This document shows, in pieces, positions 2,280 to 42,348 of a DNA stretch of 51,139 nt. The first letter of the stretch is position 1. The number at the start of each line of letters is the position of its first letter. The stretch is from IMG/VR virus record IMGVR_UViG_3300048886_000450, positions 1 to 51,139 of that record; one strand, 5' to 3'. The stretch is from a virus. Lineage: Duplodnaviria > Caudoviricetes. The position numbers and the translations under genes were made by a program. A model generated the notes under the pieces. It had not been told where the DNA came from and did not search any database. It saw only the letters and a program-made list of their open reading frames with translations.

Positions 2280-2543
2280 TCATGCATCATTGATCTCTGG
2301 GTTAAAGTTTGGGTTGTAAAACTGATCATCAAAAAAGCGTTCGCCGTACTGCAACAGCCCGTAGATAGCCCACGGAGTGCTTTGAGGACTGGTGGAAACT
2401 AAAAGAGTGTTTCCTTCATCTGTCATGACCTCTGCGATCACGACGTAATCCTTTACGACAACAGGAAGATCTTCACCGAACTTGTCGGCAACTTCAACAT
2501 CTACAATCTGCTTGCCGGGGTCTTGAGAGTTATCGTCTGCCAT
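2280..2543 (-). CDS. Small acidic hypothetical protein
   Basis: 87-aa ORF co-directional with the operon and filling the gap between neighbours. Confidence 0.6.
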   Translation of the reverse strand: MADDNSQDPGKQIVDVEVADKFGEDLPVVVKDYVVIAEVMTDEGNTLLVSTSPQSTPWAIYGLLQYGERFFDDQFYNPNFNPEINDA

Positions 2544-2565
2544 TTGCAGATACTACTTCATCGCT

Positions 2566-3312
2566 TCAAAGATTCGCGTCAGCATCCCTTTGATGCTTGC
2601 GGTAAAGACCCTTCATAGAAAATTTTCTGATTCCCCCGTAAGAAAGGCCACGATTATTACCCGATTCGTGCATTTCTGCATCACCAATAATAATCTTGCC
2701 AATGGTGTCACTTCTCTTGAACGGAATTAACTGATATATCGGTGTTCCGGCTTTAATCACAAAAGTTTCCTGTGTCATCACCCGTAAAACAACATTTATA
2801 TTGTGGTAAAAGTCCGTGTGAACTATCGCTGGTAAAACCTGATAACGCTCATCCGGCTCATACGCGATAGGCAACATCAGTGTGGAGTACCCCGGAGCGG
2901 TCTTATACAGAAACGGTGAAATAATCTTCGGAAACCCCGCCTCATCGAAAGCCCTACCATGGCTAATGGGACATCCCTCCGCCATTCTCCCACCGAAATG
3001 ATCAACGTTAAAAGCCTGATCGCTAGCGCTTCCCCGAACATCATTCATACCTATTTGAAATATTTCAATGTCGCACCATAAGGGAACTGTCAAACCAATA
3101 GACAGATAATCTTGGATACCCTTACAACTGACTATTGTGTCTGGCTTTGCTATTTTGGGACTTCTGTACCATTCCGGCCAACCGGCTGTACCTAACGTGG
3201 GAGGGTTTTCAATCAGTCGATTGTCCTTTGGAACAATCAGAATCTCTCCCTTTTTGACCTTTGGCCAATCTAGGTACGATCGGATTTTATTGAAGGTCTT
3301 CAAGCGCTTCAT
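2566..3312 (-). CDS. Conserved hypothetical protein of the type found with phage 2OG-oxygenase clusters (possibly dUTPase-like beta fold)
   Basis: PEWY..TIVSCKGIQDYL..G..VPLW, SPF.YKTAPGYS.L, PAIVHTD, IKAGTPIYQLIPFKR; overlaps the halogenase stop by 26 nt. Confidence 0.6.
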   Translation of the reverse strand: MKRLKTFNKIRSYLDWPKVKKGEILIVPKDNRLIENPPTLGTAGWPEWYRSPKIAKPDTIVSCKGIQDYLSIGLTVPLWCDIEIFQIGMNDVRGSASDQAFNVDHFGGRMAEGCPISHGRAFDEAGFPKIISPFLYKTAPGYSTLMLPIAYEPDERYQVLPAIVHTDFYHNINVVLRVMTQETFVIKAGTPIYQLIPFKRSDTIGKIIIGDAEMHESGNNRGLSYGGIRKFSMKGLYRKHQRDADANL

Positions 3313-4765
3313 GATGATCCATTACTGGGTAAGCGGATTGGCCTTCCCGTAGTTTCCATATGACATCCTCTACGGACTTTCCCCAATTCAAAGCCTGTAT
3401 TGCCCTAGAAGCCGAATCAGGATTCAAAACTCCCTGTCCTTGCCCTACATGGTAGAAATGTGGCATTCCAAACATCGCCAATTCCCCATGGACAAAATCC
3501 ATCTGTTGGGGTGGGCGTTCTGACCAAAGACCCAACAGTCGTTCCAAATTTTCCGGAATGGGCACATCCTGTAAGGCAGACCAAAATGGAGTATCAGTTC
3601 GATCACTAATGTAATGCAATCGAATCATGTCAAGAATATTAGCCATCATATTATTGAACTGTCGGTTGTATTCTTTCGGAATCCATTCGTCGCCCTTCTG
3701 AAAAGACGCCAAATAACAGATCAGAGATTGTGCCTGAGTTATTGTTGACCCTATGGAAGTCGCTTCTAGCGGTTCCACAAATGATCCTGCCAGACCGACC
3801 GCTACACAATTGCCGACCCATGCTTCCTCTAAATGACCCGGATCAAATTGAAAGTGTCGGTAGTCCGATATTTGGACATCCAACAATTCTTCCATTTCCG
3901 CTACTGCTTCTTCTTCAGTGCAGAACGAAGAAGAATAGACATATCCATTGCCTCGTTCTATTTGAGTTGGAATTTCCCATGCCCAACCGCTATTTAATGC
4001 CCTAGCACGAGTGTATGGCCTGATCTCTCCGCTTTCGTCCGCTGGTGTTCGGAAGGCAATTGCTGAATCTGTCAACAAATAATCACTGAAAGAGTTCCAT
4101 GTCTGTTTGGAAAGATGCGAAATCAAAACTTTGTTGAAACCAGAGGCATCTATCCAGAAGTCTGCTTTAATCGTTCTCTCGGCTGCCGCCGATGGATCGT
4201 CTAGTTCTACGGTAGTAATCCAATCATTTTTTACAACAACCCTCTGAACTTCACCCTCTACAATTTTTATATTACGATTCTTTACCTTAACTCTAAGAAA
4301 ATCATTCAACTCTTGAGTGTCGAAATGAAATTGGTTGACAGTCCTGTGAGGATTGTGCGCTGGAACCTTGTTTTCCAATAATCCTTTATGAGCAGTGTGT
4401 TGAGTCAACAACCATTCCTTAGACAAGAGTCCAGCGTATGCTCCGTTGAAGCCAAACATATGAGGAACAAAATCAGGCAACCCAGAAGTCACATGAAAAT
4501 AATCAGGGGTGTGATCAGTCCATCCTTCAAAACGAATACCCTTTTTGTGAGTGGCTAGCGCAGCAACAATCAATTCTGCGGGTTCTATCCCACAAAAGTT
4601 CATAAACCCTAACCAATGCTCCGTGGAGCCTTCCCCTACTCCTATGGTGCCAATCTTGTCAGACTTGACAACTGTGATTTCATGATCGGGAAGACCGGAA
4701 CGCAGAATAAGCGCTGCGATCAACCCTGCGTTTCCTCCCCCAACAATTCCAATACTTTGATTCAT
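3287..4765 (-). CDS. Flavin-dependent (tryptophan-halogenase family) halogenase
   Basis: GGGNAG FAD motif, IGVGEGS, ATHKKGI (catalytic-Lys region), WAWEIP (WxWxIP), FVEPLEATSIG, LHY..R.DTPFW. Confidence 0.9.
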   Translation of the reverse strand: MNQSIGIVGGGNAGLIAALILRSGLPDHEITVVKSDKIGTIGVGEGSTEHWLGFMNFCGIEPAELIVAALATHKKGIRFEGWTDHTPDYFHVTSGLPDFVPHMFGFNGAYAGLLSKEWLLTQHTAHKGLLENKVPAHNPHRTVNQFHFDTQELNDFLRVKVKNRNIKIVEGEVQRVVVKNDWITTVELDDPSAAAERTIKADFWIDASGFNKVLISHLSKQTWNSFSDYLLTDSAIAFRTPADESGEIRPYTRARALNSGWAWEIPTQIERGNGYVYSSSFCTEEEAVAEMEELLDVQISDYRHFQFDPGHLEEAWVGNCVAVGLAGSFVEPLEATSIGSTITQAQSLICYLASFQKGDEWIPKEYNRQFNNMMANILDMIRLHYISDRTDTPFWSALQDVPIPENLERLLGLWSERPPQQMDFVHGELAMFGMPHFYHVGQGQGVLNPDSASRAIQALNWGKSVEDVIWKLREGQSAYPVMDHHEALEDLQ

Positions 4766-4766
4766 G

Positions 4767-5354
4767 TTACGAATACCAAGTAACTAGTGAATACTTAGTT
4801 CCTTCTTCTACCGGATGGGCAATATGACCGTAAGGGAAGTTGGAAGGAAATAAAACTATCGTTCCTGCCACCGGGGTGATCTTCAAATCAAAGTAAGGAA
4901 ACTCCAACTCGCCGCCCACGAAGTCATCATTAAGAAAACACACCATGCTCAATGCTCTCTGATTTTGTTCCGCGTGATCATGATGAAAATGGTACTCCGC
5001 CTTATTCTGGTAGCGAATAACCGTAAATCCTTCATCTCTTCTTAGATGAAGGTCATAAACAGATCTGAAATCGTTTACCTTCTCATTCAGTTCTCTACAA
5101 AACGCTTTGAGTTCTGTTTCCAGCGGTAAAAAATCCTTATCGTTGTATCCAAAAACAGCACCGATGTTGCTTTCCACACTGCTTCTATAATCGGTTTGCT
5201 GCTGTTTACCCTCAACTCCTGTTGACGACCGTTTCCACGATGTAATCGAATATTCCAATTGTGCGGCCTTCAATGTTTCACCTAACAATTTGCCCGCATC
5301 GGCATACCAGCCCTCGTGAATCAATACTCCCGGTGCAGGATTTTTAACTGCCAT
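4767..5354 (-). CDS. 2OG-Fe(II) oxygenase (prolyl-4-hydroxylase-like)
   Basis: RY....Y..HHD, LNDDFVGGELEF, FPS...YGH..HPV..G.KYSLVTW. Confidence 0.9.
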   Translation of the reverse strand: MAVKNPAPGVLIHEGWYADAGKLLGETLKAAQLEYSITSWKRSSTGVEGKQQQTDYRSSVESNIGAVFGYNDKDFLPLETELKAFCRELNEKVNDFRSVYDLHLRRDEGFTVIRYQNKAEYHFHHDHAEQNQRALSMVCFLNDDFVGGELEFPYFDLKITPVAGTIVLFPSNFPYGHIAHPVEEGTKYSLVTWYS

Positions 5355-6114
5355 GTTTCACCCACTTAATTTCGTCTTGTTGAACGTCTAAATACATATT
5401 ACCACCGGGACAAATCAACATTTCGTGTTCCAAAACTCCATAACGTATACTGAAATCTGGAATATCTCCCTGACAGAAACAAGTCAAATTTACTATTCGG
5501 TGCCCTGCCAAAACAGGATCGACTTGATGAGAATAAACGAAATTTGCTGGATAGATGAGAAGATCGCCTTTTTGGGGTTCGTGTGTCACTCCCACATACG
5601 GCCATGAAATCTCCCCGCCAGTGAAATCATCTCCCTCTGGATCGTCGTCAGGCACCCAATCACTCAAAAATTGCAAAGCACATAAAACTCTCACAGGAGC
5701 GACAAGATCCTTGTACGTTTTTCCGTCTCTGGAATGCTCTCCGGGGGTGTTATCAGAATGAGTGCCCATACGGGCACCGGGCTGATAATAAAGAAGTCTG
5801 TGAGCCTCTTGCCATTGAATATCTTGAAAACTAGTCGGATACTCTTTCATATACTCCAAGAGGCATTCCATCATCACATCCTGAAGCATGAAAACATATT
5901 TGTCTTCTTCGCTATCTTGCAATCCAGTCTCAGGAAAGTTTCTACAACGAATAGGGCCGCTAATCTCATATGAACGACGGATCCCTTCTCGGGGGTCCAC
6001 CCATGGCTCCAAGCGTTCCATTTCGTACCGGCTTTTCCAAAGAACATCGGCATATCCGTCCGGAACTTTAAAGGCGTTTCGCCATAACCCGATAGCAGGA
6101 AAAAGTGTTTCCAT
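5344..6114 (-). CDS. 2OG-Fe(II) oxygenase (prolyl-4-hydroxylase-like)
   Basis: YQPG..M..HSD, FTGGEI.W, PQKGDLLIYP..F.YSHQVDPV..G.R; ATG at 6114 overlaps the upstream TGA (TGATG), so it is preferred over TTG at 6117. Confidence 0.88.
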   Translation of the reverse strand: METLFPAIGLWRNAFKVPDGYADVLWKSRYEMERLEPWVDPREGIRRSYEISGPIRCRNFPETGLQDSEEDKYVFMLQDVMMECLLEYMKEYPTSFQDIQWQEAHRLLYYQPGARMGTHSDNTPGEHSRDGKTYKDLVAPVRVLCALQFLSDWVPDDDPEGDDFTGGEISWPYVGVTHEPQKGDLLIYPANFVYSHQVDPVLAGHRIVNLTCFCQGDIPDFSIRYGVLEHEMLICPGGNMYLDVQQDEIKWVKHGS

Positions 6115-6587
6115 CAATTTGCGCTTTCGCCCCGAAACACTGGTTTCCGCTTAAACGCAAAAAATAACGCTGTTGCCAATTCGTCGCCATCGGACTTAAA
6201 CGACACTTCGTACTTTCCAATATCTGAAACAAGAAAAACCCAACGCGCCCGATGTTTTTCACACCATGACGGAATTAAATCTTCATACGCCATTTCCTTC
6301 TTGCGGGTGTTAAAAACAGAAATAGTAGCATTTGCTTCTCGTAAATCAACAAACTCATTCGACCATACAAACGCCTGATGGCTCCCTACATTGATTTCAC
6401 TATCAACCATCGCAACACCTGCTAGTTCGGGAACTTTAAAAATTCCGGCCTTAGACGGCGTTATATCAGGATGATCTTTAAGGATTTTCGGTGGTATACC
6501 TTGAACGATTGGTATACCCCATAGTTTTGCCTCAGCGGCGTGCGGCTCTACTTCTTCGTCCGTAGGAACGTAATAAAAAGTCTTCAT
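6114..6587 (-). CDS. Hypothetical protein
   Basis: 157 aa, coupled on both sides (TAAATG upstream, TGATG downstream). Confidence 0.7.
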   Translation of the reverse strand: MKTFYYVPTDEEVEPHAAEAKLWGIPIVQGIPPKILKDHPDITPSKAGIFKVPELAGVAMVDSEINVGSHQAFVWSNEFVDLREANATISVFNTRKKEMAYEDLIPSWCEKHRARWVFLVSDIGKYEVSFKSDGDELATALFFAFKRKPVFRGESAN

Positions 6588-8204
6588 TTAAATGTTGGCA
6601 GTGTCAAGGGCAATGCTTCTGCCATTTACTCCTGTGTTAATAGAATAACTCGGTGTGCCAGCATTTCTGGTGACCACAATCAAAACGCCACCTCCGCCGC
6701 GACCGCCTCGTTGCCCCTGATACCCGGTTCCACCTGCTCCACCGGAGTAATCAACCGCCGCCGCATGACCCACATTGGGTGGAACAGCGTGACCGGCTGT
6801 AGTGTCTGAAACAAGATGATGCGTGGTGTGATTATTTGTTACCGCCGCATCAGGATTACCTGTTGGCGGTGGTGCCGCACCCTGCACCGGATCAACACCG
6901 TGATGATTTGTAATCGTGTGATGATTTTGAACGGGATTCGGCGGCACCGGGGTGATTTCTGACGCGGTGTGATGGTTCTGAGTCGTGTGATGGTTTGTGT
7001 ACGGGTTTCCGGGGGTGTGATGATGAGTGCCCGGTTGAACCATGTGGTTTGTCGGATTGTGGTTTCCGGGGTTGTGATGCGGAAACGGTTGATAATTGTG
7101 ATGACCCGGATTTTCAGTACCCGGAGTTGTGACATGCACAGGATCATTAGTTACTGGTGAATCAGGATTCACACCAGATGTGCTGGCATGATGATGCGCC
7201 GCAACGTTGTGATTGTTTGTCACAGGCGGCTGATCGACATGATGATGTTGAGTATTGTGATGATGACTAGATGCAGGCGGCTGCGGATGATGGTTAGGCG
7301 GATAATTCGTGGGAGGTGTCCCATGATGATTCTGCTGTGATCCCGTGCCGGATGCATGGTGATGGTTTTGCACGGGCGGATTTGGCGGTTGAGGGACAGC
7401 ATGATTTCTCGCAGGATCGGTATACGTCGGAGCGGGTGTCCCGCTCGTTCCGGCAGCGCCATCGCTTGCTGCTCCACCCTCACAGTACAAACCACCTGAA
7501 CCGGTAATCTGACGAGCAGAAACCATAACTACGGCACCGCCACGGCCCCCTGTTCCTCCCGTGCCACCAGTTCCCGAAGAACCCTTACCTCCCGGCGCTC
7601 CGACCGTATTAGCGTTCGGAGGCCACGTTCCTGTCGCTCCGGCTCCCGAAACTCCTTGCGCTCCGGTGCCGCCCCCTGCGCCACCCTTGACGCGAATAAA
7701 GTCTGATCCACGCTGCTTGTAAGCATTGATTGCATCACGCAAATCATAGAAATCGTTTGCTGATACACCCACCGAAGTATTGACAGAGCCGCTGCCAGTA
7801 AATGTGTAACCCGGAACATACCCATCTGGTTCGCCTGCTCCACCCAAACCATCTGTAACGTTCTCTCCAACGGCCACAGTTCCCTCTAGAGAACCTGTAC
7901 TAACACTTGACACCGTGTCCTTGATTCCCAAGTCGCCCACCAAAGTCAAAGTGTTCTTTACGAATACCCGAAAACCATTTGGATTTAAAACAACCCCACT
8001 ATTTATACCAAGATTGTCGTAGTACATATCTTCGGTAAGAGTGGTATTCGTGGTAATTGTCACATTGCCGTCTTCACCGTTTCCGAAAATCAGTTCACCA
8101 TCGAATTGAAGATCGCCAAACTCGTCCTCAGGCAGCATTTCAACTGCGTAAGGAAGTAAGTCCTTTTCTCTACGGACACCCTGATCGTATTTCGGATCAG
8201 CCAT
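6588..8204 (-). CDS. Gly-rich putative virion/fibre-tip protein with a His/Asn/Pro-rich low-complexity insert
   Basis: FGNGEDG.VTI beta domain and GGxGG repeats flank a 213-aa segment with ~41 His; paralog of 8204..8863. Confidence 0.75.
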   Translation of the reverse strand: MADPKYDQGVRREKDLLPYAVEMLPEDEFGDLQFDGELIFGNGEDGNVTITTNTTLTEDMYYDNLGINSGVVLNPNGFRVFVKNTLTLVGDLGIKDTVSSVSTGSLEGTVAVGENVTDGLGGAGEPDGYVPGYTFTGSGSVNTSVGVSANDFYDLRDAINAYKQRGSDFIRVKGGAGGGTGAQGVSGAGATGTWPPNANTVGAPGGKGSSGTGGTGGTGGRGGAVVMVSARQITGSGGLYCEGGAASDGAAGTSGTPAPTYTDPARNHAVPQPPNPPVQNHHHASGTGSQQNHHGTPPTNYPPNHHPQPPASSHHHNTQHHHVDQPPVTNNHNVAAHHHASTSGVNPDSPVTNDPVHVTTPGTENPGHHNYQPFPHHNPGNHNPTNHMVQPGTHHHTPGNPYTNHHTTQNHHTASEITPVPPNPVQNHHTITNHHGVDPVQGAAPPPTGNPDAAVTNNHTTHHLVSDTTAGHAVPPNVGHAAAVDYSGGAGGTGYQGQRGGRGGGGVLIVVTRNAGTPSYSINTGVNGRSIALDTANI

Positions 8205-8863
8205 CAGTCAGCCTCTAAGAAATAGGTATTCCCCGCTGACCCAGTTCCGGAACCAGCCGCACTCAGCGTGTACGAATGGCTTTTGTCGGACGAAACCAAA
8301 AATAACACACCGCCGCCTGCATTACCTGCCGAAGTAGCAATGATGCTTCCACTTCCAAAGAGGTATCGTGCAGCGACTATTACCACACCACCGCCATAAT
8401 TTGTTCCATCTCCTGCCCCGCCCTTGAGAAGATTGATAGTGCCATTACTAGGATCAAATGAATACCCGTCAACAACATTCAAAGGATTCTTATACCACTT
8501 CGTTCCACCCAAAGCCGCAGTAGGAGCCGTAACGGTGTGACTAGCAGAAGCACCACCTAACGAATTGGTTACTGCCGCGTTCTGCGTTCCAATCCCCAAA
8601 GACCCTTGAGAACTAGGTCCGGCTGTCATCCCAACCGTTCCCCACAAAAACAAGTTGCGTTGAACAAATACCCGATAACCAGCAGTGTTTAATGTTTTAC
8701 CCGAATCGACTGTCAAATCCAGATAGTACATATCTGAGGTCAACGTGGTGTTGGTACTGATCGTTACAGTGCCATCTTCTCCGCTGCCGAAAATATGCGA
8801 TGGCGAATCATAAAAATCCGCTAAAGCATCAGGAGCGCCTATTCGGACAAGCCGCCCAGCCAT
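8204..8863 (-). CDS. Gly-rich putative virion protein, insert-less paralog of 6588..8204
   Basis: FGSGEDGTVTISTNTTLTSDMYY..L...SG..LN..GYRVFV aligns by eye with its neighbour; GGGVVIVAAR and GGGVLFLV. Confidence 0.75.
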   Translation of the reverse strand: MAGRLVRIGAPDALADFYDSPSHIFGSGEDGTVTISTNTTLTSDMYYLDLTVDSGKTLNTAGYRVFVQRNLFLWGTVGMTAGPSSQGSLGIGTQNAAVTNSLGGASASHTVTAPTAALGGTKWYKNPLNVVDGYSFDPSNGTINLLKGGAGDGTNYGGGVVIVAARYLFGSGSIIATSAGNAGGGVLFLVSSDKSHSYTLSAAGSGTGSAGNTYFLEAD

Positions 8864-9195
8864 TACGCCTCCTGAATGCCAAATGAATGAATTGAAACTG
8901 AACTAGCGACCGAAGCAGAAGCCTGAATAAAATCACTAGTCGCCATGACTGCCGACAGGTTGACGAAAGTTGTTGACTTGGCGTCAACACTCACATCATA
9001 AAGAATTGCATTAGTAGAACTAGCCGATCCACCATTAGGAACTAGATAAACAGCAATAGTTCTAGCGGCAGCAGCAGTGTTACACAGAGCAATTTGCTTC
9101 ACAATCGTCGTAGTGGACGCTGGCACGGTGTACAACGTCGAAGGCGACGTTCCCAACTGTGCGGGCGCATGTAGTTTCGTATGAGTCATTGCCAT
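8863..9195 (-). CDS. Small beta-sandwich virion protein
   Basis: TLYTVPASTTTIVKQIALCNT pattern typical of small fibre-associated proteins; TAATG coupling at both ends. Confidence 0.65.
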   Translation of the reverse strand: MAMTHTKLHAPAQLGTSPSTLYTVPASTTTIVKQIALCNTAAAARTIAVYLVPNGGSASSTNAILYDVSVDAKSTTFVNLSAVMATSDFIQASASVASSVSIHSFGIQEA

Positions 9196-29852: not shown

Positions 29853-32024
29853 ATGCTTAGTAAAAAATTTGTAGACTCGTATACTCAAAAATCACCCCCT
29901 TGGGGATTCAACGGACTTGGATACATAGTCTATAAACGTACATATGCACGAATCCTTGATAACTCGTACTTCTGGCCTACCCCCACGGAAGTACAAAAAA
30001 GAGTTTCAGAATTGAAGCCCAGTCTCCACGATCTAGATGAACCCAAAGTGGACCGAATGGTGCAAGACGCTAAACAAGGGTGGAATCTTTTAGACGAAAA
30101 AATCGCTATTAGCAACGATGGATTCATCATCGACGGTCATCATCGTTGGACCGCCATGAAAAAAACAGGACTAAGCAACGAAATTATTAATACAGACGAA
30201 GTTGATTTGCCTATTGACGAGATTTGGGGACCAAAAACTCAACGAACAGAGGAATGGTGGCAAACCTGTCAACGAGTCGTAAACGGCGCTAACGAAATCG
30301 GGGCAGAACTAAGCGACGAAGAATCCGAACGTCTGTTCGACTATATGTTCAACCTCAAAGGGACGCCCGGTGGGCGAATGCTTTGGCAATTGGGAACTCC
30401 CAACAACTTCCGACTTGGTGGCGACAGCCTTTGTAACTGCTGGTTCGTAGATATTCAAAAGCCTGAAGATTTTGCATGGATGTTTGAACGCCTCATGCTA
30501 GGAGGGGGTGTCGGATTTTCTATCCTCAACCCCCACCGATTAGGAGTTGTTCGACAGGGCGCTGTGGATAACCACAATGTGTCAGATGCGGATTACATCG
30601 TTCCCGACAAGCGTGAAGGCTGGTCCGAATGTCTTCTACGCGCAATAAAAACTTATCTTGGAACCGCAAATGATCCGACAGAATTTTCATACTCCACCCA
30701 ACTTGTCCGACCAGCAGGCGCTCCTATCCGCACATTCGGAGGAACCGCATCAGGACCGGACATTCTCATAAAAGGCATTACAAAAATCTGTGCAGTTTTA
30801 AACGGAGCCATCGGACGAAACCTCCATGCTGTAGAAGTCTTAGACATCTGCAACATCATCGGATCTGTTGTCGTTGCAGGCAATGTCAGGCGCAGCGCAG
30901 AAATTGCTCTCGGTAGTCCATTCGATATCGACTACCTCAGCGCCAAACGCTGGGACATAGGGGAAGTCCCCTCACACCGCGCCATGTCAAACAACAGCGT
31001 CGTTACCTCCAATATAGAGGGCATACCTGATGTGTTCTGGGAAGGATACAAAGGTAACGGAGAACCATACGGTTTGTTCAATCTTGACGCATCACGGAAA
31101 TACGGTCGCCGTGGAGAGATCCGCGAAGACCCTTCCATCGCTGGAACTAACCCGTGCGCTGAGATCGGTTTAGCCAATCGCGAGTCTTGTAACCTCGCAG
31201 AAATCATGCTGCCCAATATCGAAAGTCAAGAAGAACTAATTGACATTTCGATGCTTCTCTACAAGGTTCAGAAAGCAGTTGCATCACTTCCATATTTAGA
31301 TCAGGAATCAGACGACATCACTAGCAAAAACATGCGTCTCGGTCTTGGCGTTACTGGTGTCGCCCAAGCCCTTGACAAACTTGATTGGCTTTCCCCCGCA
31401 TACGAAGCCCTTCGTGATTTCGACAGGCATTGGTCCTCTTACAAGGAGTGGCCAACCTCTGTCCGTCTCACAACAGTAAAACCAAGCGGAACGTTAAGTC
31501 TTCTTGCTGGCATCACTCCCGGTATACATCCGGGCTACAGCAAACATCACATTCGCAGAGTTCGCATGGCATCAACTGACCCTCTATTGGACTATTGCGA
31601 AAAACGCGGCTACCACGTTGAGTGGGTTGAAAACGATGACCGAACCAAGGTTGTCGAATTTCCTTGCGAATTTCCAGAAGGAACAACTCTCGCTCACCAT
31701 ATGACGGCAGTTGAACAATTGGAACTGCAATGTCGGATGCAAGAAGAATGGGCAGATAATGCTGTTTCGGTAACTGTTTATATCAAGTCAGGAGAATTGG
31801 AAAGCGTTCAAGAATTTCTGAAAAAGAACTGGCCGACAATGAAATCCGTTTCCTTCCTTCTTCACAACGAACACGGATTCACTCAAGCCCCCCTAGAAGA
31901 AATAAATCAAACCAAATACGAAGAGATACTTAATCGCGTCAAAGACGACAAAATTCTTGTTGGTGGTGGATTCAGTGAACTGCTTGACGATGACTGTTCC
32001 ACCGGAGCATGTCCCATCCGGTAA
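29853..32024 (+). CDS. nrdJ: Class II (adenosylcobalamin-dependent, monomeric RTPR-type) ribonucleotide reductase with ParB-like insertion
   Basis: YKRTYAR, PGGRMLW, LCNC, LMLGGGVGF, VVAGNVRRSA, TNPCAEI, ESCNLAE, TTVKPSGT, C-terminal CSTGACPIR; no small-subunit gene in the window. Confidence 0.92.
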   Translation: MLSKKFVDSYTQKSPPWGFNGLGYIVYKRTYARILDNSYFWPTPTEVQKRVSELKPSLHDLDEPKVDRMVQDAKQGWNLLDEKIAISNDGFIIDGHHRWTAMKKTGLSNEIINTDEVDLPIDEIWGPKTQRTEEWWQTCQRVVNGANEIGAELSDEESERLFDYMFNLKGTPGGRMLWQLGTPNNFRLGGDSLCNCWFVDIQKPEDFAWMFERLMLGGGVGFSILNPHRLGVVRQGAVDNHNVSDADYIVPDKREGWSECLLRAIKTYLGTANDPTEFSYSTQLVRPAGAPIRTFGGTASGPDILIKGITKICAVLNGAIGRNLHAVEVLDICNIIGSVVVAGNVRRSAEIALGSPFDIDYLSAKRWDIGEVPSHRAMSNNSVVTSNIEGIPDVFWEGYKGNGEPYGLFNLDASRKYGRRGEIREDPSIAGTNPCAEIGLANRESCNLAEIMLPNIESQEELIDISMLLYKVQKAVASLPYLDQESDDITSKNMRLGLGVTGVAQALDKLDWLSPAYEALRDFDRHWSSYKEWPTSVRLTTVKPSGTLSLLAGITPGIHPGYSKHHIRRVRMASTDPLLDYCEKRGYHVEWVENDDRTKVVEFPCEFPEGTTLAHHMTAVEQLELQCRMQEEWADNAVSVTVYIKSGELESVQEFLKKNWPTMKSVSFLLHNEHGFTQAPLEEINQTKYEEILNRVKDDKILVGGGFSELLDDDCSTGACPIR

Positions 32025-32033
32025 TATTCGGAT

Positions 32034-32270
32034 ATGCCCATTCCTGCCTCATTAACGCTGAATCAAGTTGTAGAGGCTCTAGATGCTTCTATAGATGCAG
32101 GAGCATGGACAGAAACAGAAAGCATTTGCGGACACTGCTACTACGTCGGCATTGTGTACCAAGCAGACCCCGACATCGTTGGCCCCCTACCTCCTAATCC
32201 AATATCATCTTGTAAGGAATGTCTAGTACATCGTTCCATGTGGGACTCTTATCTAGAAACACACCCCTAA
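32034..32270 (+). CDS. Small hypothetical protein with two CxxC motifs
   Basis: CGHC...CKEC. Confidence 0.6.
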   Translation: MPIPASLTLNQVVEALDASIDAGAWTETESICGHCYYVGIVYQADPDIVGPLPPNPISSCKECLVHRSMWDSYLETHP

Positions 32271-32280
32271 GATATAAACT

Positions 32281-33204
32281 ATGAAAATCTTTGAAGAAGT
32301 TACAATAGATCAGATTATTCAAAACGCTTTATATTATCGCCGGTTGTTAGCCAATGAATCAATACTCGTATTCAAACAATTAAACCTCGCCCAACCAGAT
32401 CCTGATGTTTTAGATAAAGAAGGACCAGATCACCTTCGACTCATGTGGTCTTTTTACTGTGATTATGACTTCATGAGAGAAACACCCACTGGATACAAAC
32501 CTTGGTATGAGCGAACAGATTTTTGTGATGTTCTGTCTCGCTCGGATGCAGTAGGAACGATAACCGGACAATACCATTCGTTTCTTTTAGAGCGCACTGC
32601 CGAAGAACAACCAGAAGTCATGAGATCAGATGAAATTGTGGGCAATTGGCATAAAGACCATTACCACTACTATGCTCCAACCTCTGTTATCGCAATGAAC
32701 ATGCACACATTCAAATGCCCTCCCAGTAACGGAAATACCGTTATCGTAAATCTTGAAAACGCCTACGACGATTGTCCAAAACACATACTGGACTACCTAC
32801 GAGACAGGAGTTTTATTTACACTGATGTTTGCCGCTGCGAGGATCCTCCGCTGTCAGCAGAACATCCAACATTCTCTACCCACCCAGTCACAGGAAGAAC
32901 ATCTTTGTGTTATCCCGGCAGGGATGGTGGTGGAGGTCTTGCCTGCACTCCCTCCGACGGGTCCGTGGAACAATGGCAAAAATACGAAGACTGGATCTGG
33001 GACTATATGAATGCGCCTGAAAACCAGTTCAGAATGGAATGGGAAGAAGGAGACTTTCTGATTTGGGACAACAGATCTTGCATACACAACTACTTCGGTG
33101 GCTGGAAAAAAGAGGACCGAATCTTCGATCGATTTTGTATTGGAGTTAACACTCCATTTTACAATGGGCTAGACAGTCCATATTATGAACCAGAGATACT
33201 ATGA
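32281..33204 (+). CDS. TauD/TfdA-family 2OG-Fe(II) dioxygenase
   Basis: WHKD, GNT, HP....HPVTGR.SL, WEEGDFLIWDNR...H, R...R. Confidence 0.88.
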   Translation: MKIFEEVTIDQIIQNALYYRRLLANESILVFKQLNLAQPDPDVLDKEGPDHLRLMWSFYCDYDFMRETPTGYKPWYERTDFCDVLSRSDAVGTITGQYHSFLLERTAEEQPEVMRSDEIVGNWHKDHYHYYAPTSVIAMNMHTFKCPPSNGNTVIVNLENAYDDCPKHILDYLRDRSFIYTDVCRCEDPPLSAEHPTFSTHPVTGRTSLCYPGRDGGGGLACTPSDGSVEQWQKYEDWIWDYMNAPENQFRMEWEEGDFLIWDNRSCIHNYFGGWKKEDRIFDRFCIGVNTPFYNGLDSPYYEPEIL

Positions 33205-36330: not shown

Positions 36331-36610
36331 CTATTGTGCTTCTATGAGGCATCGCCCGTGCTGCTTCTAACAATTCGTCATACCTACTTACACTGACAGA
36401 CTCTTCCGCAGTATCCCGATAAGGACTCTCAGACATATTAATAAACGGAAGAGGCGTCTTCAAATGTTCCTCTCTCCATGTATCTGACGTACCAAAATAA
36501 TTTAACCAGTTATTAAGAACCCCTTCATGGTCTGCATAAATGGTAAATACGTTGTCTTCAACGGCCATGATGGCCCCACCACTACTTACTACATGATTGT
36601 CATAGTTCAT
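36302..36610 (-). CDS. Small acidic hypothetical protein coupled to the 1913-aa gene
   Basis: ATGA overlap at 36610-36607. Confidence 0.6.
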   Translation of the reverse strand: MNYDNHVVSSGGAIMAVEDNVFTIYADHEGVLNNWLNYFGTSDTWREEHLKTPLPFINMSESPYRDTAEESVSVSRYDELLEAARAMPHRSTIVVDDGEEGG

Positions 36611-39600
36611 ACAAGCCCCAAGTCTGACAATATCTCATCAACAGGAAGAACTCCGTTCGGAGCAACTGTATCAAATTGACTATTTAATGCTTGCCTCATC
36701 TGGTCAACACCAGCAAGATACTCCTGACGGTTTACCATTCGTTCACGCAAATTTGGATCATTTATCATTTCCTGTAACCGACTAAGCATTTCTGTAACCT
36801 GTTCACGCAAAGCCTCTTTTCGGGCAGGATCGGCAGCCACCACCCTTCTAATATCATTAAGTATTCCGTGATCCATTGAAAAATCACTATTTGCATATCT
36901 GTTTACACGACTCCTACTCGCCCTTCCAATCCGCGCCAGATCCGCTGGATACACATGACCTTTAATTGTCTCATTCCCATTAGCATCTGTAACTTTCTCA
37001 ATATTAATCATGCCATTTCCGTGGTGTCTGTCTGAAACCCCAAGAAACCAGTTAAGCATCATGTGTCCTACGCGGCCTTCCAGCATGGCGTCTTGCATCT
37101 CTACGCTGTATGTCGCAAGATTAAAACCGCTTGACAGATCTACATCATCGAAATCTTCGGCCCCATTCCAAGCATGTTCTAAAACAATCGCACGACCTGT
37201 CTCCCCCGTAGCAAATGCGGCTGGCCCCAGCCCATTCTGACGACGACCACGACCTAACATCTCACCATCCTCACGACCGGGCATTGTTGGAAGACCCATA
37301 CGGTGAGCAATTTCTATGCCAACCAATTCGGCTAATGCGTCATAATCTCCGTTATCTCTATTGGAACCGTGTTTAGAAATTTTGATAAACACACCCTCTC
37401 TTCCAACAGTCCCATCTGGCCTACGCTGGGCCAAAACATACGTTGTTCCGATATTGCCCTTATTGGCCGCGACAAGTAGAAATCGATCATCTCCAATAGT
37501 CGCATTGTCTGCTCTAGCGGGACCATTACTTTCACCATCCGGATAAGTCAAACCAGCAGCATTATTCAAAATAGCGTTACCTAAAAAGGCATCAGGCACA
37601 TCCGACAAGTCTCCTCCACCACGAACATGCCGATCAGCATCCAATTGAACATTCATTCCATAATGGCCAACCGGAACAGAATCAATAACAACATTGCCTT
37701 GATCGTCTATATGACCCGGCAAACCCAATCCAGCAGGGCGAGGTCGTGGGTTGGCTCCTCCACCCAGCCTCCCCGGCAAAACCCGATCAGGATTATGCAC
37801 GACACCGTTTCCGATATCGACGGGGTCAACACGATCTCCAAGCGCCACATTCCTTCGGTACGATATTAAATCTTGGTGCAGTTGACCCATCGCTGCTTTA
37901 GATTCTTCTCTCCGTTGCTGCAATGTCGCGAGATTGGACACTCTAGGAAGATTTTCTAGTTCGTTCAGTATTTCCTGAACTTCAGCAAGATGAACATCAA
38001 CTTGATTTTCAAATGCCTCATCAGCATTATCTAAACTATTTCGTATCTCTCTTATGCGAGGTTCAAACTCGTCCAAAACTTCCCGAACCACCTGAGCATG
38101 AACACGCTGTTCATTGGCACGCACAAGTGAGTTAATGTCCGATTCAAGGGCAACCTTCCTATCAATCAAGGCTTGTAGGTCAGGATCAGGATTATTTGCT
38201 CCCATCCGGGGTAAAGCAGCCCGATCCAATATCCCATTTTGTATGTCAATTAGGTCTCGTGCCATCTCCATTGGGACATCAGCATCCTCAGGCATATTAT
38301 TGATATGCCTTTCGATCTCTCTGAACCTTGGTTCATTCGCATTCACAAAGTCCCGGTTCATGCGAAAGATTTGACGCTTCTGAACGACTTCTTTCTTTCT
38401 ATGCAGCGCCGCCAAAATTTCTCTACCCCTCTCGGCCACCGCTTCAAAATCGGAGGGTGCTTCGCCTTCATCGGGATCCCAATTATGAGGCCGCAGATTC
38501 TGCAAATGCTGGTTCAGAACAATCTCATCTGCGACGATACGAGCCAAAACTGCTTCATCATCCATGTTGTTCGCTACCGCATCATCCAAATCGGCTTCAT
38601 CCCAGCCCCGATTGAATGCCCCAACTTCCCTGTGAGCCGCCACAAGTTGTTGATGCCTTGTACGGCGCTGTGCAGCCTGCGCGTCGATACGCTCTTGACG
38701 CCTCTGACGCTCCGCAGGAAGTTTATTTTCTTTCAGATTACGCAACGACCTCTTTATACCTTGCAGTTTTCGACGTTCATCTTGCCTCTGCCCTCGTGGA
38801 AGCAACGCGAGCCGCCGGTCGATATCCAGTAAGGCACGGTCAACATTCGCCTCATGCCCTTCTATTTTCGCTACACCATCACGGAAGCCGTCGTTTCGTC
38901 GCGTCGGCCTTCCATTCCGCATACCGATCGCACGTTGAATCTTTTTGATATCAACCTTGTAGTTGTATACGGCATCAGGATTGGAATCCAGCCGACGATT
39001 CTGTTGACGGATACCGCCTACAGGAGAAATGTCCGTCGCTACCTCAGGTGTCTCCGGATCTGGTTGATCCACAACACCCTCAGGACGATCATCCGCATAA
39101 GGTGCGTCTAGACGATCAGGATGTCTAACAATCATTCCACCAGAACCACGAAGCCGTGGTTGTTCCGGGTCCATAGGACGCGCAGCAGCCTGCTCATCCC
39201 ACAAATCGTTATAGCGCCTAGCGACCCAATCGGGAATATTTGGTTGGTTATCGTAGTTGTTACGAAGTACCTGCATCTCGTCCCGAAGTTCCAGATGATC
39301 CATTTGATTGACAGGACGGCCATGCTCTTCAGGCACCGGTACACCATCCGCGTCAACAAGCAACCGATCTATCACCGGCTCCTCCGCTACCCCTTCGTCA
39401 AACGCTTCCCTGCCATTCCGCATGGCTATGGCCCGCGCCAACTCGGAAGCAGCAGTTCGACGCCTTAAGACATCACCAGAATCATCAAAATTTAGAATGT
39501 GGTTTCGTTGACGCTCAACCCACTCCGCCAACTCATCGTCATCCATATTGGCAAGTATTTCCATACGTTCACGATGGTACCGATTTACATCATCCCCCTC

Positions 39601-42348
39601 CATCTCTGCCATCAATTCTCCATGACGATCGGCAAAGCGCCGCATCAAATCTCTATCTTCGTTATCGCCAACAGGATCAGCCTGCACCGCTGCAATTATC
39701 CTCTCAGCCAAACCCGAACGATCCAGTTCCTCTAACCCATCACCAAGATCTTCTGGTCTGCCAGCCTCACGACCTTCATCACCCATATGCATCCGGACGT
39801 ACCTTTTGGCACGAGACACACCTCCTTGATTGGGTCGTGGACCTAGCGCTTCCGTTGGCCACTCATCATTCAAAATCTGTGCCCGCTGCTTGTCATTCAA
39901 ACTGGCGATACTTTCCCTACGCTGGCGTCGGCTTTCCGGATCAAGATTGGGGCTGTCCCAATTCAAAAACTTGATTGCAGGAACACCCTCTGGAACATCT
40001 ATTTCATCTCTGGTGTCTTGCCGTGGATCAGTATCACCACGTTCCGGATTTACATTTAGCCTCCGCAACTCGTTCAAACGAGCCTGATAAGAACGCCTCA
40101 AACGACCATGCACAAGCCCGTCTTGAACATCCACAGCGTTCTCAACAGCCTCCGCCAGATGTTCCAACCGCTCCAACTCAAATTCCGGCTCTTCCGCAAC
40201 GGCTTGGACAAACCTCTGAACCTCCGCCTCCGTCCAGTCGATGTCCCCATCTACGCCCAGTTCGATCTGGTGTCGAATCCCATCCATAATGATTTCGTCG
40301 CCAGATCTAACCCCCGACGGGAGACCGCCTCCTTGACTTTCAGGAGTCGCCGGAGCCACGCCACCGGCACCGTCACGCTGCAACCTTGCTGCTAGATCGC
40401 CTTCTCCGACAAAGTTGTTGTAGCGCTGGAATTCTTCGGCATAAGCCGCCGCCACATAAACACCTTCCTCGTCCATTGGTTCAGGACCAGCGGCTTCCGG
40501 CCACCCCGCAAGGACATCCGTGCCATCAGGACCAAGATGTTCCTCCGCACGCATACCTGCGGCACTGTCGATTATTTGCTGACGCTCCTCCGGAGACAAA
40601 TTCCGTATGATCTCTTGTCTACGGCTATCCGCTTCTACATCGAAGTTCTCCCATGGGTTGTTGGGATCTTGGCCAGTGAACTCATAGCCACGCCCTTCAG
40701 GTGTAGCATTCGCATCCCGCCTATTACTTTGTTCTTGAAGTATCAAGTATCGTTGATTGAATAGCCGACGGCCCTCATCGTCATCCATAAGCGAAACGCC
40801 TTCTGGGAGGAGCGCAATCCTCTCTTCAATATGACGCTGGAGTAAGACGCGATCTTCTTCAATCTCTTCATCTGACATGCCCCGGATAGTGCGGCGGCGA
40901 CTTTCTAGTGATGCCATTTGACGCCACTCCTGACGCATCTCAGTATCCATATTGTCGATACGAAGACCCGCCGCTTCAAAGCCGGAATCATTATCTGTAA
41001 TTATGTCCCAAAGCGCTTGTTGATCGGCTTGCGTTAACAAATATTCCATTGCCTCAGGACGCATACGAACACGCTCTGGTTCCTCGTCTGGAAGGTCAGC
41101 CTCAGGATCAGGAGGACCGCCTCCTTGACTTTCAGGAGTTTCAGGAAGATCATCTGGACCAAACTCGGCAGCCCTACGACGAGCCTCCGTAGCCTCCTCA
41201 GCGGCCGCACGACTATCCCTCTCTGCTATCAGCCGGTCGTAATAATCCGGGTCATGACTACGCGTGTCACCGTCAATCGGACGCATTCCAGCACCCGGTC
41301 GATCCCTCTCTCTCAAACCCTCTTGCGTCCTGATGTGTTGAGCAATCTGCTCATCAGTAGCATTAGAAACGTTGATTAATTGTCCTTGTCCGGGCCGGTG
41401 ATCGCCCGGACGGCCACCGGGCGTTACCCCGGTACCCGGCCTATCCGCTGATTCAGGAACCAAATCCTCTACCGCTTCCGCCACATCCTCCGTAGCCTCC
41501 TCAGCGGCCTCCTCCTGACCCGGAACAACAACCTCTCCCTCAATCAGTGAATTAATAAACGCTTCCCGATACTCCGGATCCTCACGCAACCGACGCTCAT
41601 GCTCTTCTAAATCCACACCATCCGGCAAACCAATCTCATCGAATTCTGCTTCCCTCTCCCAGTCAGGCTCATTGCCAGCAGCATCACCGGCTTGACGACG
41701 CTCCCCCTCCAACCGCAATGCTTTCCGCACCGCAGCAAGAGCCGGATCACCGTCTCTCTGCTTTACCCCACTAAATCCTTCAATAAACCCATCCCAAAAC
41801 CCCCGATAGTCCTCGTCCATAGGATGATCACCACGAGCAGCCTCAGCGGCAAGCAAACGCTCACGGCTTCCCTCACTAACAGCAGCATCAATACGAGCAA
41901 TCAACTCATCCAAGTTTTCAATTTCACTAGCCCTCGCCTCTTGGCGATCTGCTCTAGCCAAACGCCTATCAGCACGACGCAACCGGCGCTGGCCGCGCCT
42001 AGCCAGCCGTCCCTCACGACCACGCGCACCTACAGAACGATCACCCGGCTTGTAATCAATATCATTCCCATCCCCATCAACCAGACGCGACGCAGACGGG
42101 ATAGACCTCAAACCAGCAGCCAACTCTTCTCCAAGTTTGCTGAGAAAACGGCTACCAGCAGGACGCTCCCAAATCGTGCCCTCCTGAACCAACCCGTCAC
42201 CATCTGCATCACGGGCACCAGCCTCATAAGGAACAACCTTAGGAACCGCCCTCAATGGATTGCGAATCTTTACTTCAAACTCAGCCTGATCAAATAGACG
42301 CGCACGAATCCCTACCTCATTGACATGCGATTCACGATTCAAATTCAT
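36607..42348 (-). CDS. Giant head-region protein with C-terminal HipA/PI3-4-kinase-like domain
   Basis: 1913 aa, largely D/E/R-rich; C-terminal GNIGTTY, VFIK, AELVG.EIA..MGLP, NWFLGVSDRHHGN, PADL. Confidence 0.75.
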   Translation of the reverse strand: MNLNRESHVNEVGIRARLFDQAEFEVKIRNPLRAVPKVVPYEAGARDADGDGLVQEGTIWERPAGSRFLSKLGEELAAGLRSIPSASRLVDGDGNDIDYKPGDRSVGARGREGRLARRGQRRLRRADRRLARADRQEARASEIENLDELIARIDAAVSEGSRERLLAAEAARGDHPMDEDYRGFWDGFIEGFSGVKQRDGDPALAAVRKALRLEGERRQAGDAAGNEPDWEREAEFDEIGLPDGVDLEEHERRLREDPEYREAFINSLIEGEVVVPGQEEAAEEATEDVAEAVEDLVPESADRPGTGVTPGGRPGDHRPGQGQLINVSNATDEQIAQHIRTQEGLRERDRPGAGMRPIDGDTRSHDPDYYDRLIAERDSRAAAEEATEARRRAAEFGPDDLPETPESQGGGPPDPEADLPDEEPERVRMRPEAMEYLLTQADQQALWDIITDNDSGFEAAGLRIDNMDTEMRQEWRQMASLESRRRTIRGMSDEEIEEDRVLLQRHIEERIALLPEGVSLMDDDEGRRLFNQRYLILQEQSNRRDANATPEGRGYEFTGQDPNNPWENFDVEADSRRQEIIRNLSPEERQQIIDSAAGMRAEEHLGPDGTDVLAGWPEAAGPEPMDEEGVYVAAAYAEEFQRYNNFVGEGDLAARLQRDGAGGVAPATPESQGGGLPSGVRSGDEIIMDGIRHQIELGVDGDIDWTEAEVQRFVQAVAEEPEFELERLEHLAEAVENAVDVQDGLVHGRLRRSYQARLNELRRLNVNPERGDTDPRQDTRDEIDVPEGVPAIKFLNWDSPNLDPESRRQRRESIASLNDKQRAQILNDEWPTEALGPRPNQGGVSRAKRYVRMHMGDEGREAGRPEDLGDGLEELDRSGLAERIIAAVQADPVGDNEDRDLMRRFADRHGELMAEMEGDDVNRYHRERMEILANMDDDELAEWVERQRNHILNFDDSGDVLRRRTAASELARAIAMRNGREAFDEGVAEEPVIDRLLVDADGVPVPEEHGRPVNQMDHLELRDEMQVLRNNYDNQPNIPDWVARRYNDLWDEQAAARPMDPEQPRLRGSGGMIVRHPDRLDAPYADDRPEGVVDQPDPETPEVATDISPVGGIRQQNRRLDSNPDAVYNYKVDIKKIQRAIGMRNGRPTRRNDGFRDGVAKIEGHEANVDRALLDIDRRLALLPRGQRQDERRKLQGIKRSLRNLKENKLPAERQRRQERIDAQAAQRRTRHQQLVAAHREVGAFNRGWDEADLDDAVANNMDDEAVLARIVADEIVLNQHLQNLRPHNWDPDEGEAPSDFEAVAERGREILAALHRKKEVVQKRQIFRMNRDFVNANEPRFREIERHINNMPEDADVPMEMARDLIDIQNGILDRAALPRMGANNPDPDLQALIDRKVALESDINSLVRANEQRVHAQVVREVLDEFEPRIREIRNSLDNADEAFENQVDVHLAEVQEILNELENLPRVSNLATLQQRREESKAAMGQLHQDLISYRRNVALGDRVDPVDIGNGVVHNPDRVLPGRLGGGANPRPRPAGLGLPGHIDDQGNVVIDSVPVGHYGMNVQLDADRHVRGGGDLSDVPDAFLGNAILNNAAGLTYPDGESNGPARADNATIGDDRFLLVAANKGNIGTTYVLAQRRPDGTVGREGVFIKISKHGSNRDNGDYDALAELVGIEIAHRMGLPTMPGREDGEMLGRGRRQNGLGPAAFATGETGRAIVLEHAWNGAEDFDDVDLSSGFNLATYSVEMQDAMLEGRVGHMMLNWFLGVSDRHHGNGMINIEKVTDANGNETIKGHVYPADLARIGRASRSRVNRYANSDFSMDHGILNDIRRVVAADPARKEALREQVTEMLSRLQEMINDPNLRERMVNRQEYLAGVDQMRQALNSQFDTVAPNGVLPVDEILSDLGLV

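Follow-up and report, generated by a model that had tools for sequence, protein, structure and literature searches.

Related systems and the gene block of the window

The closest described counterpart of the gene block treated here is a cluster of cyanophage Syn9, which combines dioxygenases, halogenases and a dUTPase-fold protein bearing a cysteine, and for which the available part of the source paper proposes secondary metabolites (Iyer, Abhiman, de Souza and Aravind, 2010, PMC2938197). In the same part of that paper, collagen-like and tail-collar proteins are proposed as substrates only for other, bacterial operons. The present block lies in a 51,139-nucleotide stretch of DNA of the virus record IMGVR_UViG_3300048886_000450 (the whole stretch being called the window), and encodes a Gly-rich scaffold protein of 538 amino acids (aa) with a hypervariable His-rich insert, followed by a 157-aa protein, two 2-oxoglutarate (2OG)-Fe(II) oxygenases, a flavin-dependent halogenase and a 248-aa DUF6065-like protein. 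Gene order, intact catalytic residues, co-occurrence of the genes and an enzyme set that shifts with insert composition were all observed. On this sequence evidence the block is probably, although by no means certainly, a co-inherited tail module in which the oxygenase pair and the halogenase modify the insert of a predicted fibre-tip adhesin. The module is real and widespread, and joins a known enzyme set to a newly specified candidate substrate.

As in the Syn9-type cluster, 2OG dioxygenases, a halogenase and a Cys-bearing dUTPase-fold protein share one neighbourhood. Syn9, as far as the available text describes it, has ten tandem dioxygenases, including a JmjC/MINA enzyme, and two halogenases, whereas the window has two PF13640 oxygenases, one halogenase and no JmjC protein; also unlike in Syn9, the window block keeps a fixed place after a His-rich scaffold and varies with it. 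In the accessible parts of two reviews, viral tryptophan halogenases and 2OG oxygenases count among the auxiliary genes whose function is speculative (PMC2984593, PMC10452541). No open-access paper was found in which a phage halogenase is connected with a His-rich protein of the fibre, and the supplements of Iyer et al. (2010) may list such neighbours.

The window halogenase is a member of the family that also includes the solved viral enzyme 6qgm (profile E-value 1e-66), which ranks 29th of 32 among its solved relatives. Structure 6qgm is that of VirX1, the flavin-dependent halogenase of cyanophage Syn10, reportedly studied by Gkotsi in 2019. Unlike VirX1, the window halogenase adjoins a candidate protein substrate.

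Relatives of the module with a His-free insert pair an oxygenase with a glycosyltransferase of family PF11397, which we take to be GT60. In this they resemble the Skp1 pathway, in which the N-acetylglucosamine (GlcNAc)-transferase Gnt1, a GT60 enzyme, acts on protein after the prolyl hydroxylase PhyA (PMC6939170, available part). PhyA and the solved bacterial or viral prolyl 4-hydroxylases 3itq, 5hv0 and 5c5t are the protein-acting counterparts of the oxygenases. Unlike the Skp1 pathway as described there, the module is phage-encoded and has a repetitive candidate substrate, and the window carries a halogenase and no glycosyltransferase.

Proteusins, a class of RiPPs (peptides that are made by ribosomes and then modified post-translationally), provide a further parallel. 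According to the accessible text of one source, their tailoring includes Asn N-methylation by PoyE, and the FkbM-like EreM works with the oxygenase EreI (PMC11285071). A repetitive chain would likewise be modified repeatedly in the module, and Asn-rich relatives carry an FkbM methyltransferase. The initial annotation had compared the block to a RiPP cluster, a comparison that survives as an analogy only: no leader/core precursor is seen, neither the block nor the 28 families of neighbouring genes that were scanned yielded a RiPP-type peptidase or transporter, and what would be modified is an internal stretch of a presumed structural protein of 538 aa.

The scaffold protein and its insert

A homologue search with the 538-aa protein returned 112 matches. 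The closest 32 were found to share an N- and C-terminal Gly-rich scaffold and to differ in the middle, which is His/Pro/Asn-rich, Glu/Pro/Gly-rich or Cys-rich; more distant homologues are His/Tyr/Asn-rich, His-free or insert-less. The protein matched no Pfam or NCBIfam family and no PDB sequence, and tblastn against 50,697 annotated phages (low-complexity filter on) gave no match. In the AlphaFold2 model, 200 residues have a predicted local distance difference test (pLDDT) value of at least 90, and residues 280–472, in the insert, fall below 50, a value uninformative on whether the insert is disordered. Foldseek found no match to the model at E ≤ 0.001, and the VIA fold search gave only middling, generic beta-solenoid matches. 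The predicted fold is a beta-solenoid with Gly-rich strands. Calling the protein an adhesin is guesswork based on its architecture and its position, since the fold searches return generic beta-solenoids only, and it is the position among tail genes that points to a virion protein.

The predicted short beta-helix, Gly-rich strands and hypervariable insertion may recall the T-even adhesin gp38, which combines a beta-helix with a polyglycine-II sandwich. The match to S16 gp38 (6f45) is weak (VIA Z 5.3, root-mean-square deviation 3.5, 117 aligned residues, rank 45, below generic beta-solenoids), no sequence match was found, and the insert of the window, unlike that of gp38, measures 228 aa. To our knowledge, gp38 has no tailoring enzymes.

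The insert contains 41 His, 38 Pro, 28 Asn, 5 Tyr and no Trp, and every His of the 538-aa protein lies within it. In the window's clade (22 rows), the lengths of the two arms around a conserved tip motif are correlated (Pearson 0.53, Spearman 0.76). After de-duplication and removal of one mis-anchored row, r rises to 0.94 for 16 unique members, and the arms differ by 19–29 residues in 14 of them. In the Tyr/Asn clade the difference is 18–19 residues in 27 of 31 rows, and in a third set of nine rows, one of them mis-anchored, the correlation is not significant. Kinship among rows inflates the p-values. Because both arms change length together, as an out-and-back hairpin predicts, the insert probably folds as a hairpin. 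The composition initially reported for it was borne out, and its description as low-complexity sequence is refined; the coupled arm lengths speak against a disordered linker.

Versions of the Gly-rich scaffold that lack an insert also occur in many bacterial genomes, among them Solirubrobacterales, Planctomycetota and Patescibacteria (loci L370–L419).

Enzyme content follows the insert

Loci were collected by four scaffold scans of IMG/VR, one metagenome scan and one halogenase scan, with further loci from a scan with a Cys-rich query and a genome scan; the large scans cover the best 80 of 272–608 relatives. Genes were labelled with hidden Markov models built on the surveyed loci, which unrelated oxygenase families could escape. 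Scaffold counts exclude the halogenase-seeded, Cys-rich-query and genome scans, and comprise 136 non-redundant scaffolds of at least 290 aa, 114 of them with at least 5 kb downstream. An insert was called at 24 or more His/Asn/Tyr/Pro in 80 residues, and four Glu-rich loci of the window's clade were added by hand.

All 73 insert-bearing scaffolds have a 2OG oxygenase and a DUF6065 gene within 9 kb, and neither gene lies beside any of 40 insert-less proteins (29 loci); the 41st insert-less row is the short paralogue inside a cassette. None of the enzymes was found in 50 bacterial and archaeal genome loci (L370–L419, several of them short). The halogenase was found to follow the His content of the insert, being present in 43/43 cassettes with at least 12 His per 100 aa, in 2/19 with 5–11 and in 0/11 with fewer than 5. 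PF04820 is absent from the whole records of ten His-poor phages (five at least 90% complete) and of five insert-less phages, and is present as a single copy in each of four His-rich control records. Conversely, all 62 distinct halogenases with at least 4.5 kb upstream have an insert-bearing scaffold in the locus, which is His-rich in 59 cases. Other enzymes take the place of the halogenase elsewhere: a PF11397 glycosyltransferase occurs in 11/11 cassettes with fewer than 5 His per 100 aa, and an FkbM methyltransferase in 17 of the 19 with intermediate His. The module was observed in both sheath-bearing and siphovirus-like tail regions. Enzyme presence co-varies with insert presence and composition, including a swap to a Cys-rich insert within one clade, so that the neighbourhood comparison initially proposed favours the cassette reading.

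Glycosyltransferases (GT1, GT2, PF11397) and methyltransferases join many cassettes, and modules for surface conversion are known to carry such enzymes. The cassette enzymes might thus modify the host receptor of the adhesin, in receptor masking or superinfection exclusion, and co-vary with the adhesin for that reason. This reading gives no account of a halogenase that tracks the His content of the phage's own protein, the genes are tightly coupled inside a tail operon, and we regard it as very improbable.

Two further gene families recur beside the halogenase. Family c4 (358 aa; about 360 or 220 aa in L017, L042 and L233) and a 235-aa family (L050, L054, L069) are repeatedly found next to the halogenase gene; the latter appears methyltransferase-like by eye, with no Pfam or PDB match. 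Neither these two families nor family c8 (307 aa) could be assigned.

Variant cassettes

Two loci, L154 and L369, are nested in the window's clade (support 99) on a tree of 103 rows built from the N-terminal part of the scaffold, and are counted as one event. Their inserts are Cys-rich, with 7–9 Trp and 4–8 His (the three Cys-rich homologues counted have 24–40 Cys). The halogenase, the DUF6065 gene, the 157-aa gene and one oxygenase are missing. Between the scaffold and the 87-aa gene that ends the block, only an orthologue of the 195-aa oxygenase is left, with both iron-binding His replaced (in L369 as judged by eye). A scan of IMG/VR for more Cys-rich loci yielded L366 alone, a different variant. 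The scaffold with its Cys-rich insert and the oxygenase-like gene that follows it occupy L369:870–3242 and L154:809–3457; the retained pseudo-enzyme may serve as a chaperone.

L279 (6030–21446) holds two complete tandem cassettes. Their halogenases belong to different clades, each falling with the relatives of the scaffold in its own cassette.

A third variant (L014, L062, L319 and relatives) has a Tyr/Asn/Ser insert with seven-residue repeats around an HxHxH-type tip. It carries an FkbM methyltransferase, additional oxygenases and several DUF6065-like genes, often with a Fer4_15 ferredoxin as well, and its insert is a candidate Asn-methylated, metal-stapled needle. His-free Pro/Tyr/Thr inserts (L036, L301, L304–L306, L329, L336–L341, L352) are accompanied by PF11397 GlcNAc-transferases and by one intact and often one dead oxygenase; such cassettes are possibly a phage version of hydroxyproline glycosylation. 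In L345, L347 and L267 the enzyme genes are inverted relative to the scaffold (about 11400–17200 in L345), and in L349 they lie upstream of it.

Which residue does the halogenase act on?

The 492-aa protein matches PF04820 with an E-value of 2e-101. GxGxxG, K74, WxWxIP and E334 are invariant or nearly so in 26 relatives, and in a larger set the catalytic motifs are kept in 102–105 of 105 sequences (GxGxxG 105, WxWxIP 103). K74 and E334 align to a Lys and a Glu of solved halogenases, presumably the catalytic K79 and E346 of PrnA. The HxF(G/E) stretch, by which halogenases of free Trp (PrnA, RebH and PyrH type) stack their substrate, reads H-A-F and H-P-F in the two solved Trp halogenases compared and is replaced by H-V-T in the window and by H-S-V/I in relatives. 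The subfamily is 43–64% identical internally and at most 39% identical to annotated phage halogenases, and about 1,200 IMG/VR stretches match its halogenase patterns. No flavin reductase was found among the genes scanned, so the host would have to supply reduced flavin.

Trp was rejected as the insert target, as the window insert has none and Trp-rich Cys inserts come without a halogenase; 26 of 78 halogenase-linked inserts hold no Trp. Tyr is unlikely, since Tyr-rich inserts are the halogenase-free ones (median 15.6% versus 4.3% Tyr). The HH dipeptide was found in 76/78 halogenase-linked and 0/46 halogenase-free parsed inserts (rows not de-replicated), a rule that also accounts for the halogenase-free FkbM clade, in which His alternate as HxHxH. 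Because the aromatic residues of the window insert are nearly all His, and because the halogenase is lost beside Trp- or Tyr-rich inserts and has a changed substrate stretch, His is put forward as its target, a suggestion that remains tentative. Bromohistidine is known from sponge skeletons (PMC8659048, available part), and a predicted histidine-halogenase subnetwork is mentioned in the accessible part of a 2026 preprint (10.64898/2026.08.03.742642).

An alternative is that the enzymes serve to produce or change a small molecule, such as a halogenated secondary metabolite or a cell-surface precursor, and ride along in a variable tail island. The Syn9 cluster was read in this way (PMC2938197), as was another cyanophage cluster (Iyer, 2021, PMC7824862), so far as the available parts of both papers show; most solved relatives of the halogenase are tryptophan halogenases that act on small molecules, chemistry on nucleotides is suggested by a dUTPase fold, and the His link is backed by three independent changes only. 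Against a small molecule, the scan of cassette families revealed neither a synthetase nor a transporter, the enzyme set shifts with insert composition even within one clade, tandem cassettes keep a halogenase each, and the stretch that marks solved Trp halogenases is altered here. Overall, this alternative is considered unlikely.

A distant halogenase and a glycosyltransferase lie behind collagen-like fibre genes in the cultured Actinomycetia phage DSL-LC01 (L007, 10507–17570). The region has no scaffold of the 538-aa type and is a possible bench system.

The oxygenases

One oxygenase matches PF13640 with an E-value of 3e-15 and the other with 1e-5 (26.9 bits, against a cut-off of 27). The HxD...H triad and a basic 2OG ligand are kept in both: H120, D122, H197 and R207 in the 257-aa protein (numbers counted by eye) and H124, D126, H177 and K187 in the 195-aa protein. 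The nearest solved structures to the latter are the prolyl 4-hydroxylases 3itq and 5hv0 (E 5e-6). The catalytic residues were found to be intact in 233 of 246 relatives. Eight of the 13 triad-less copies lie beside Cys-rich or His-free inserts, three are truncated or apparently frameshifted and two are extra copies. The oxygenase that follows the 157-aa gene is triad-less in 7/7 cases of the His-free clade, where the second oxygenase is intact, and the dead 195-aa orthologue of the Cys-rich variant adjoins an insert that contains Pro. The decay of oxygenases beside His-poor inserts that still contain Pro (two events) suggests His or Asn, and not Pro, as the target of one oxygenase or more.

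These decayed copies also bear on another explanation, in which the insert is a metal-stapled needle that needs no covalent decoration, and the neighbouring proteins fold it or load metal, or the flavoprotein oxidises or cross-links it. The tip of T4 gp37 is the model of a metal-stapled needle. The arm lengths co-vary as they would in a hairpin needle, the FkbM clade is distinguished by a tip with alternating HxHxH, two lineages retain oxygenases that are catalytically dead, and QhpG and LodB, flavoproteins that modify proteins, were matched weakly. Set against this are the conservation of catalytic motifs in both enzyme families, including WxWxIP and Lys in the halogenases, the lack of a halogenase in the very clade with the clearest HxH needle, and the 19 HH versus only 5 HxH of the window insert. 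This explanation is likewise judged unlikely, and metal binding and covalent modification could both occur together.

The DUF6065-like and 157-aa proteins

The structural look-alikes of the 248-aa protein in the Atlas belong to DUF6065. The protein itself does not match PF19541; 19 of 51 relatives match PF19541 weakly and 6 of 51 match PF00692. Foldseek aligns it to dUTPases (E 1e-5; template modelling score 0.33–0.39 by query and 0.42–0.68 by target), and all 11 of its weak profile matches are dUTPases or Wsv112. C63, S143, D167, R200 and Y237 are invariant in the family. Position 165, occupied by His in the window, varies among the 51 sequences (H 19, E 12, D 11, N 9), and is presumably the site of the motif-3 catalytic Asp, the first Asp of G-x-I-D-x-D-Y. 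The protein is probably not a true dUTPase, a reading rejected because His165 replaces this Asp.

The 157-aa gene adjoins 61 of the 73 insert-bearing scaffolds. Its family comprises 223 clusters at 50% identity, and the 150 listed are all stand-alone proteins of 104–171 aa, among which no fused form was found. Atlas scores stay below 0.8, and searches returned no PDB profile match, no family and no fold.

How might the module work, and what speaks against it?

The enzymes would be made late, together with the tail genes, and the insert would be modified before or during fibre assembly; the 538-aa protein would reach the virion accompanied by the 110-aa protein and by its own 219-aa paralogue. 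The oxygenases would hydroxylate Pro, and probably also His or Asn. Supplied with reduced flavin by a host reductase, the halogenase would halogenate His imidazoles, with HH pairs as the leading candidate site. Partner roles in assembly or presentation may fall to the dUTPase-fold and 157-aa proteins. Such chemistry may adjust the surface of a hypervariable needle that would bind the host, with binding, stability or protease resistance as the gain.

A bolder proposal, offered with considerable reserve, is that a protein-histidine halogenase and histidine hydroxylases decorate a His-rich needle of the virion, that the kit (halogenase, GlcNAc-transferase or FkbM methyltransferase) is swapped with the sequence in a chemically diversified host-recognition module, and that this is the natural job of many viral halogenases and oxygenases. 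If true, protein-histidine halogenation would be added to phage biology, imidazole halogenation would gain a new biocatalyst, and viral halogenase and oxygenase genes would move from "host metabolism" to virion maturation. The module offers a concrete candidate substrate, a residue (His, probably in HH pairs) and natural negative controls in its Cys-rich and His-free variants, which turns the question into one of co-expression and mass spectrometry.

Several observations weigh against modification of the insert. The insert-less controls come from other phage lineages, which lack the 110-aa gene, so the association of enzymes with inserts shows specificity and not cause. On the scaffold tree, no more than three changes in the presence of the halogenase are needed. 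With a threshold of 5 His, independent pairs gave two changes in the same way, none opposite and one without difference (p = 0.5); with a threshold of 12 His, one to two went the same way and none opposite. The direction is consistent, with too few events for a statistical claim. Thus, of the initially proposed substrate-plus-tailoring cassette, the tie of oxygenase and DUF6065 genes to the insert and the tracking of His by the halogenase stand, and statistical significance on the tree does not. Seventeen non-redundant cassettes with an HxHxH tip (9–10 His per 100 aa) lack a halogenase and four cassettes with 6–11 His carry one, so His count alone is no predictor. In L366 a His-poor insert has no cassette enzyme in the 9 kb downstream, and the contig ends just upstream. 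Two extra degenerate oxygenase copies adjoin His-bearing inserts (L207, L289), and the retention of degenerate oxygenases in two lineages hints at non-catalytic roles. The distant halogenases of the cultured cyano- and pelagiphages P-SSM2, HTVC008M, S-H38 and S-SCSM2R adjoin oxygenases or hypothetical genes, and no annotated fibre gene was found ahead of them within 9 kb; the link to a His-rich scaffold is therefore shown for the window's subfamily only. No report of a protein-histidine halogenase was found in the open-access literature.

Gene layout and setting

The positions of the genes are listed in Table 1. All genes of the initially annotated block were confirmed. The eight genes from the 219-aa to the 87-aa gene (8863–2280) are all on the minus strand, and the successive gaps between the 219-, 538-, 157-, 257-, 195-, 492-, 248- and 87-aa genes are −1, 0, −4, −11, +1, −26 and +22 nucleotides (nt). 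Spacing of at most 1 nt, as first described, hence applies down to the 248-aa gene but not to the 87-aa gene. The latter was found in 13 loci, all of the window's clade, and is kept in L154 and L369 despite the loss of enzymes; it is probably not part of the enzyme module. The 219-aa protein is 50% identical to the 538-aa protein across 88 residues (E 3e-20), and this short form accompanies the long form in most cassettes. The 110-aa family forms a single cluster in 77 loci of the first scans, matches phrog_1276/20100 weakly and was not found among the insert-less loci L083–L136.

Table 1. Features of the gene block in the window (aa, amino acids)
Feature	Coordinates	Strand	Remark
110-aa gene, module head (family c0)	8863..9195	-	just beyond the initially annotated block
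219-aa short, insert-less scaffold paralogue	8204..8863	-	
538-aa Gly-rich scaffold, candidate fibre-tip/adhesin and candidate substrate	6588..8204	-	
His/Pro/Asn/Thr-rich hypervariable insert, residues 260–487	6744..7427	-	likely out-and-back hairpin
157-aa protein	6114..6587	-	confined to the module as far as seen
257-aa 2OG-Fe(II) oxygenase, TTG start	5344..6117	-	PF13640
195-aa prolyl-4-hydroxylase-like 2OG-Fe(II) oxygenase	4767..5354	-	PF13640
492-aa flavin-dependent halogenase, tryptophan-halogenase family	3287..4765	-	PF04820
248-aa DUF6065-like protein, dUTPase fold, invariant Cys63	2566..3312	-	fold and look-alikes
87-aa gene, specific to the window's clade	2280..2543	-	probably outside the enzyme module

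The minus strand of the window, a virus record of 51 kb, carries capsid, neck, sheath, tube and baseplate genes. The block is flanked by tail genes of a contractile-tailed phage, as judged by PHROG matches: baseplate wedge (phrog_6) and sheath (phrog_23) genes upstream, and a phrog_3304-like fibre-assembly gene downstream. Runs holding the window's DNA are mostly labelled as seawater or marine metagenomes (20 rows, 11 studies), and no RNA data set is among those listed. In the probable source run, one contig spans 2200–8857 with zero differences from the window, and in three other runs contigs cover the block in pieces, mostly 90–99% alike. WhiB was found in 5/5 relatives from other clades, which points to actinobacteria as host, and in 0/3 incomplete records of the window's clade (21–34% complete). 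Three full-length matches in GTDB genomes lie on phage-like contigs of two bins, one gammaproteobacterial and one verrucomicrobial, and name no host.

Elsewhere in the window, two very large proteins of 1913 and 2083 aa are encoded in the interval from the portal region to the capsid gene (36607–42348 and 42610–48861, minus strand). Neither has a PHROG or NCBIfam match, and the 1913-aa protein has a C-terminal motif that appears kinase-like by eye. A class II ribonucleotide reductase and a TauD-family dioxygenase are encoded on the opposite strand amid the structural genes (29853–33204, plus strand), and the reductase shows an apparent insertion after about residue 60.

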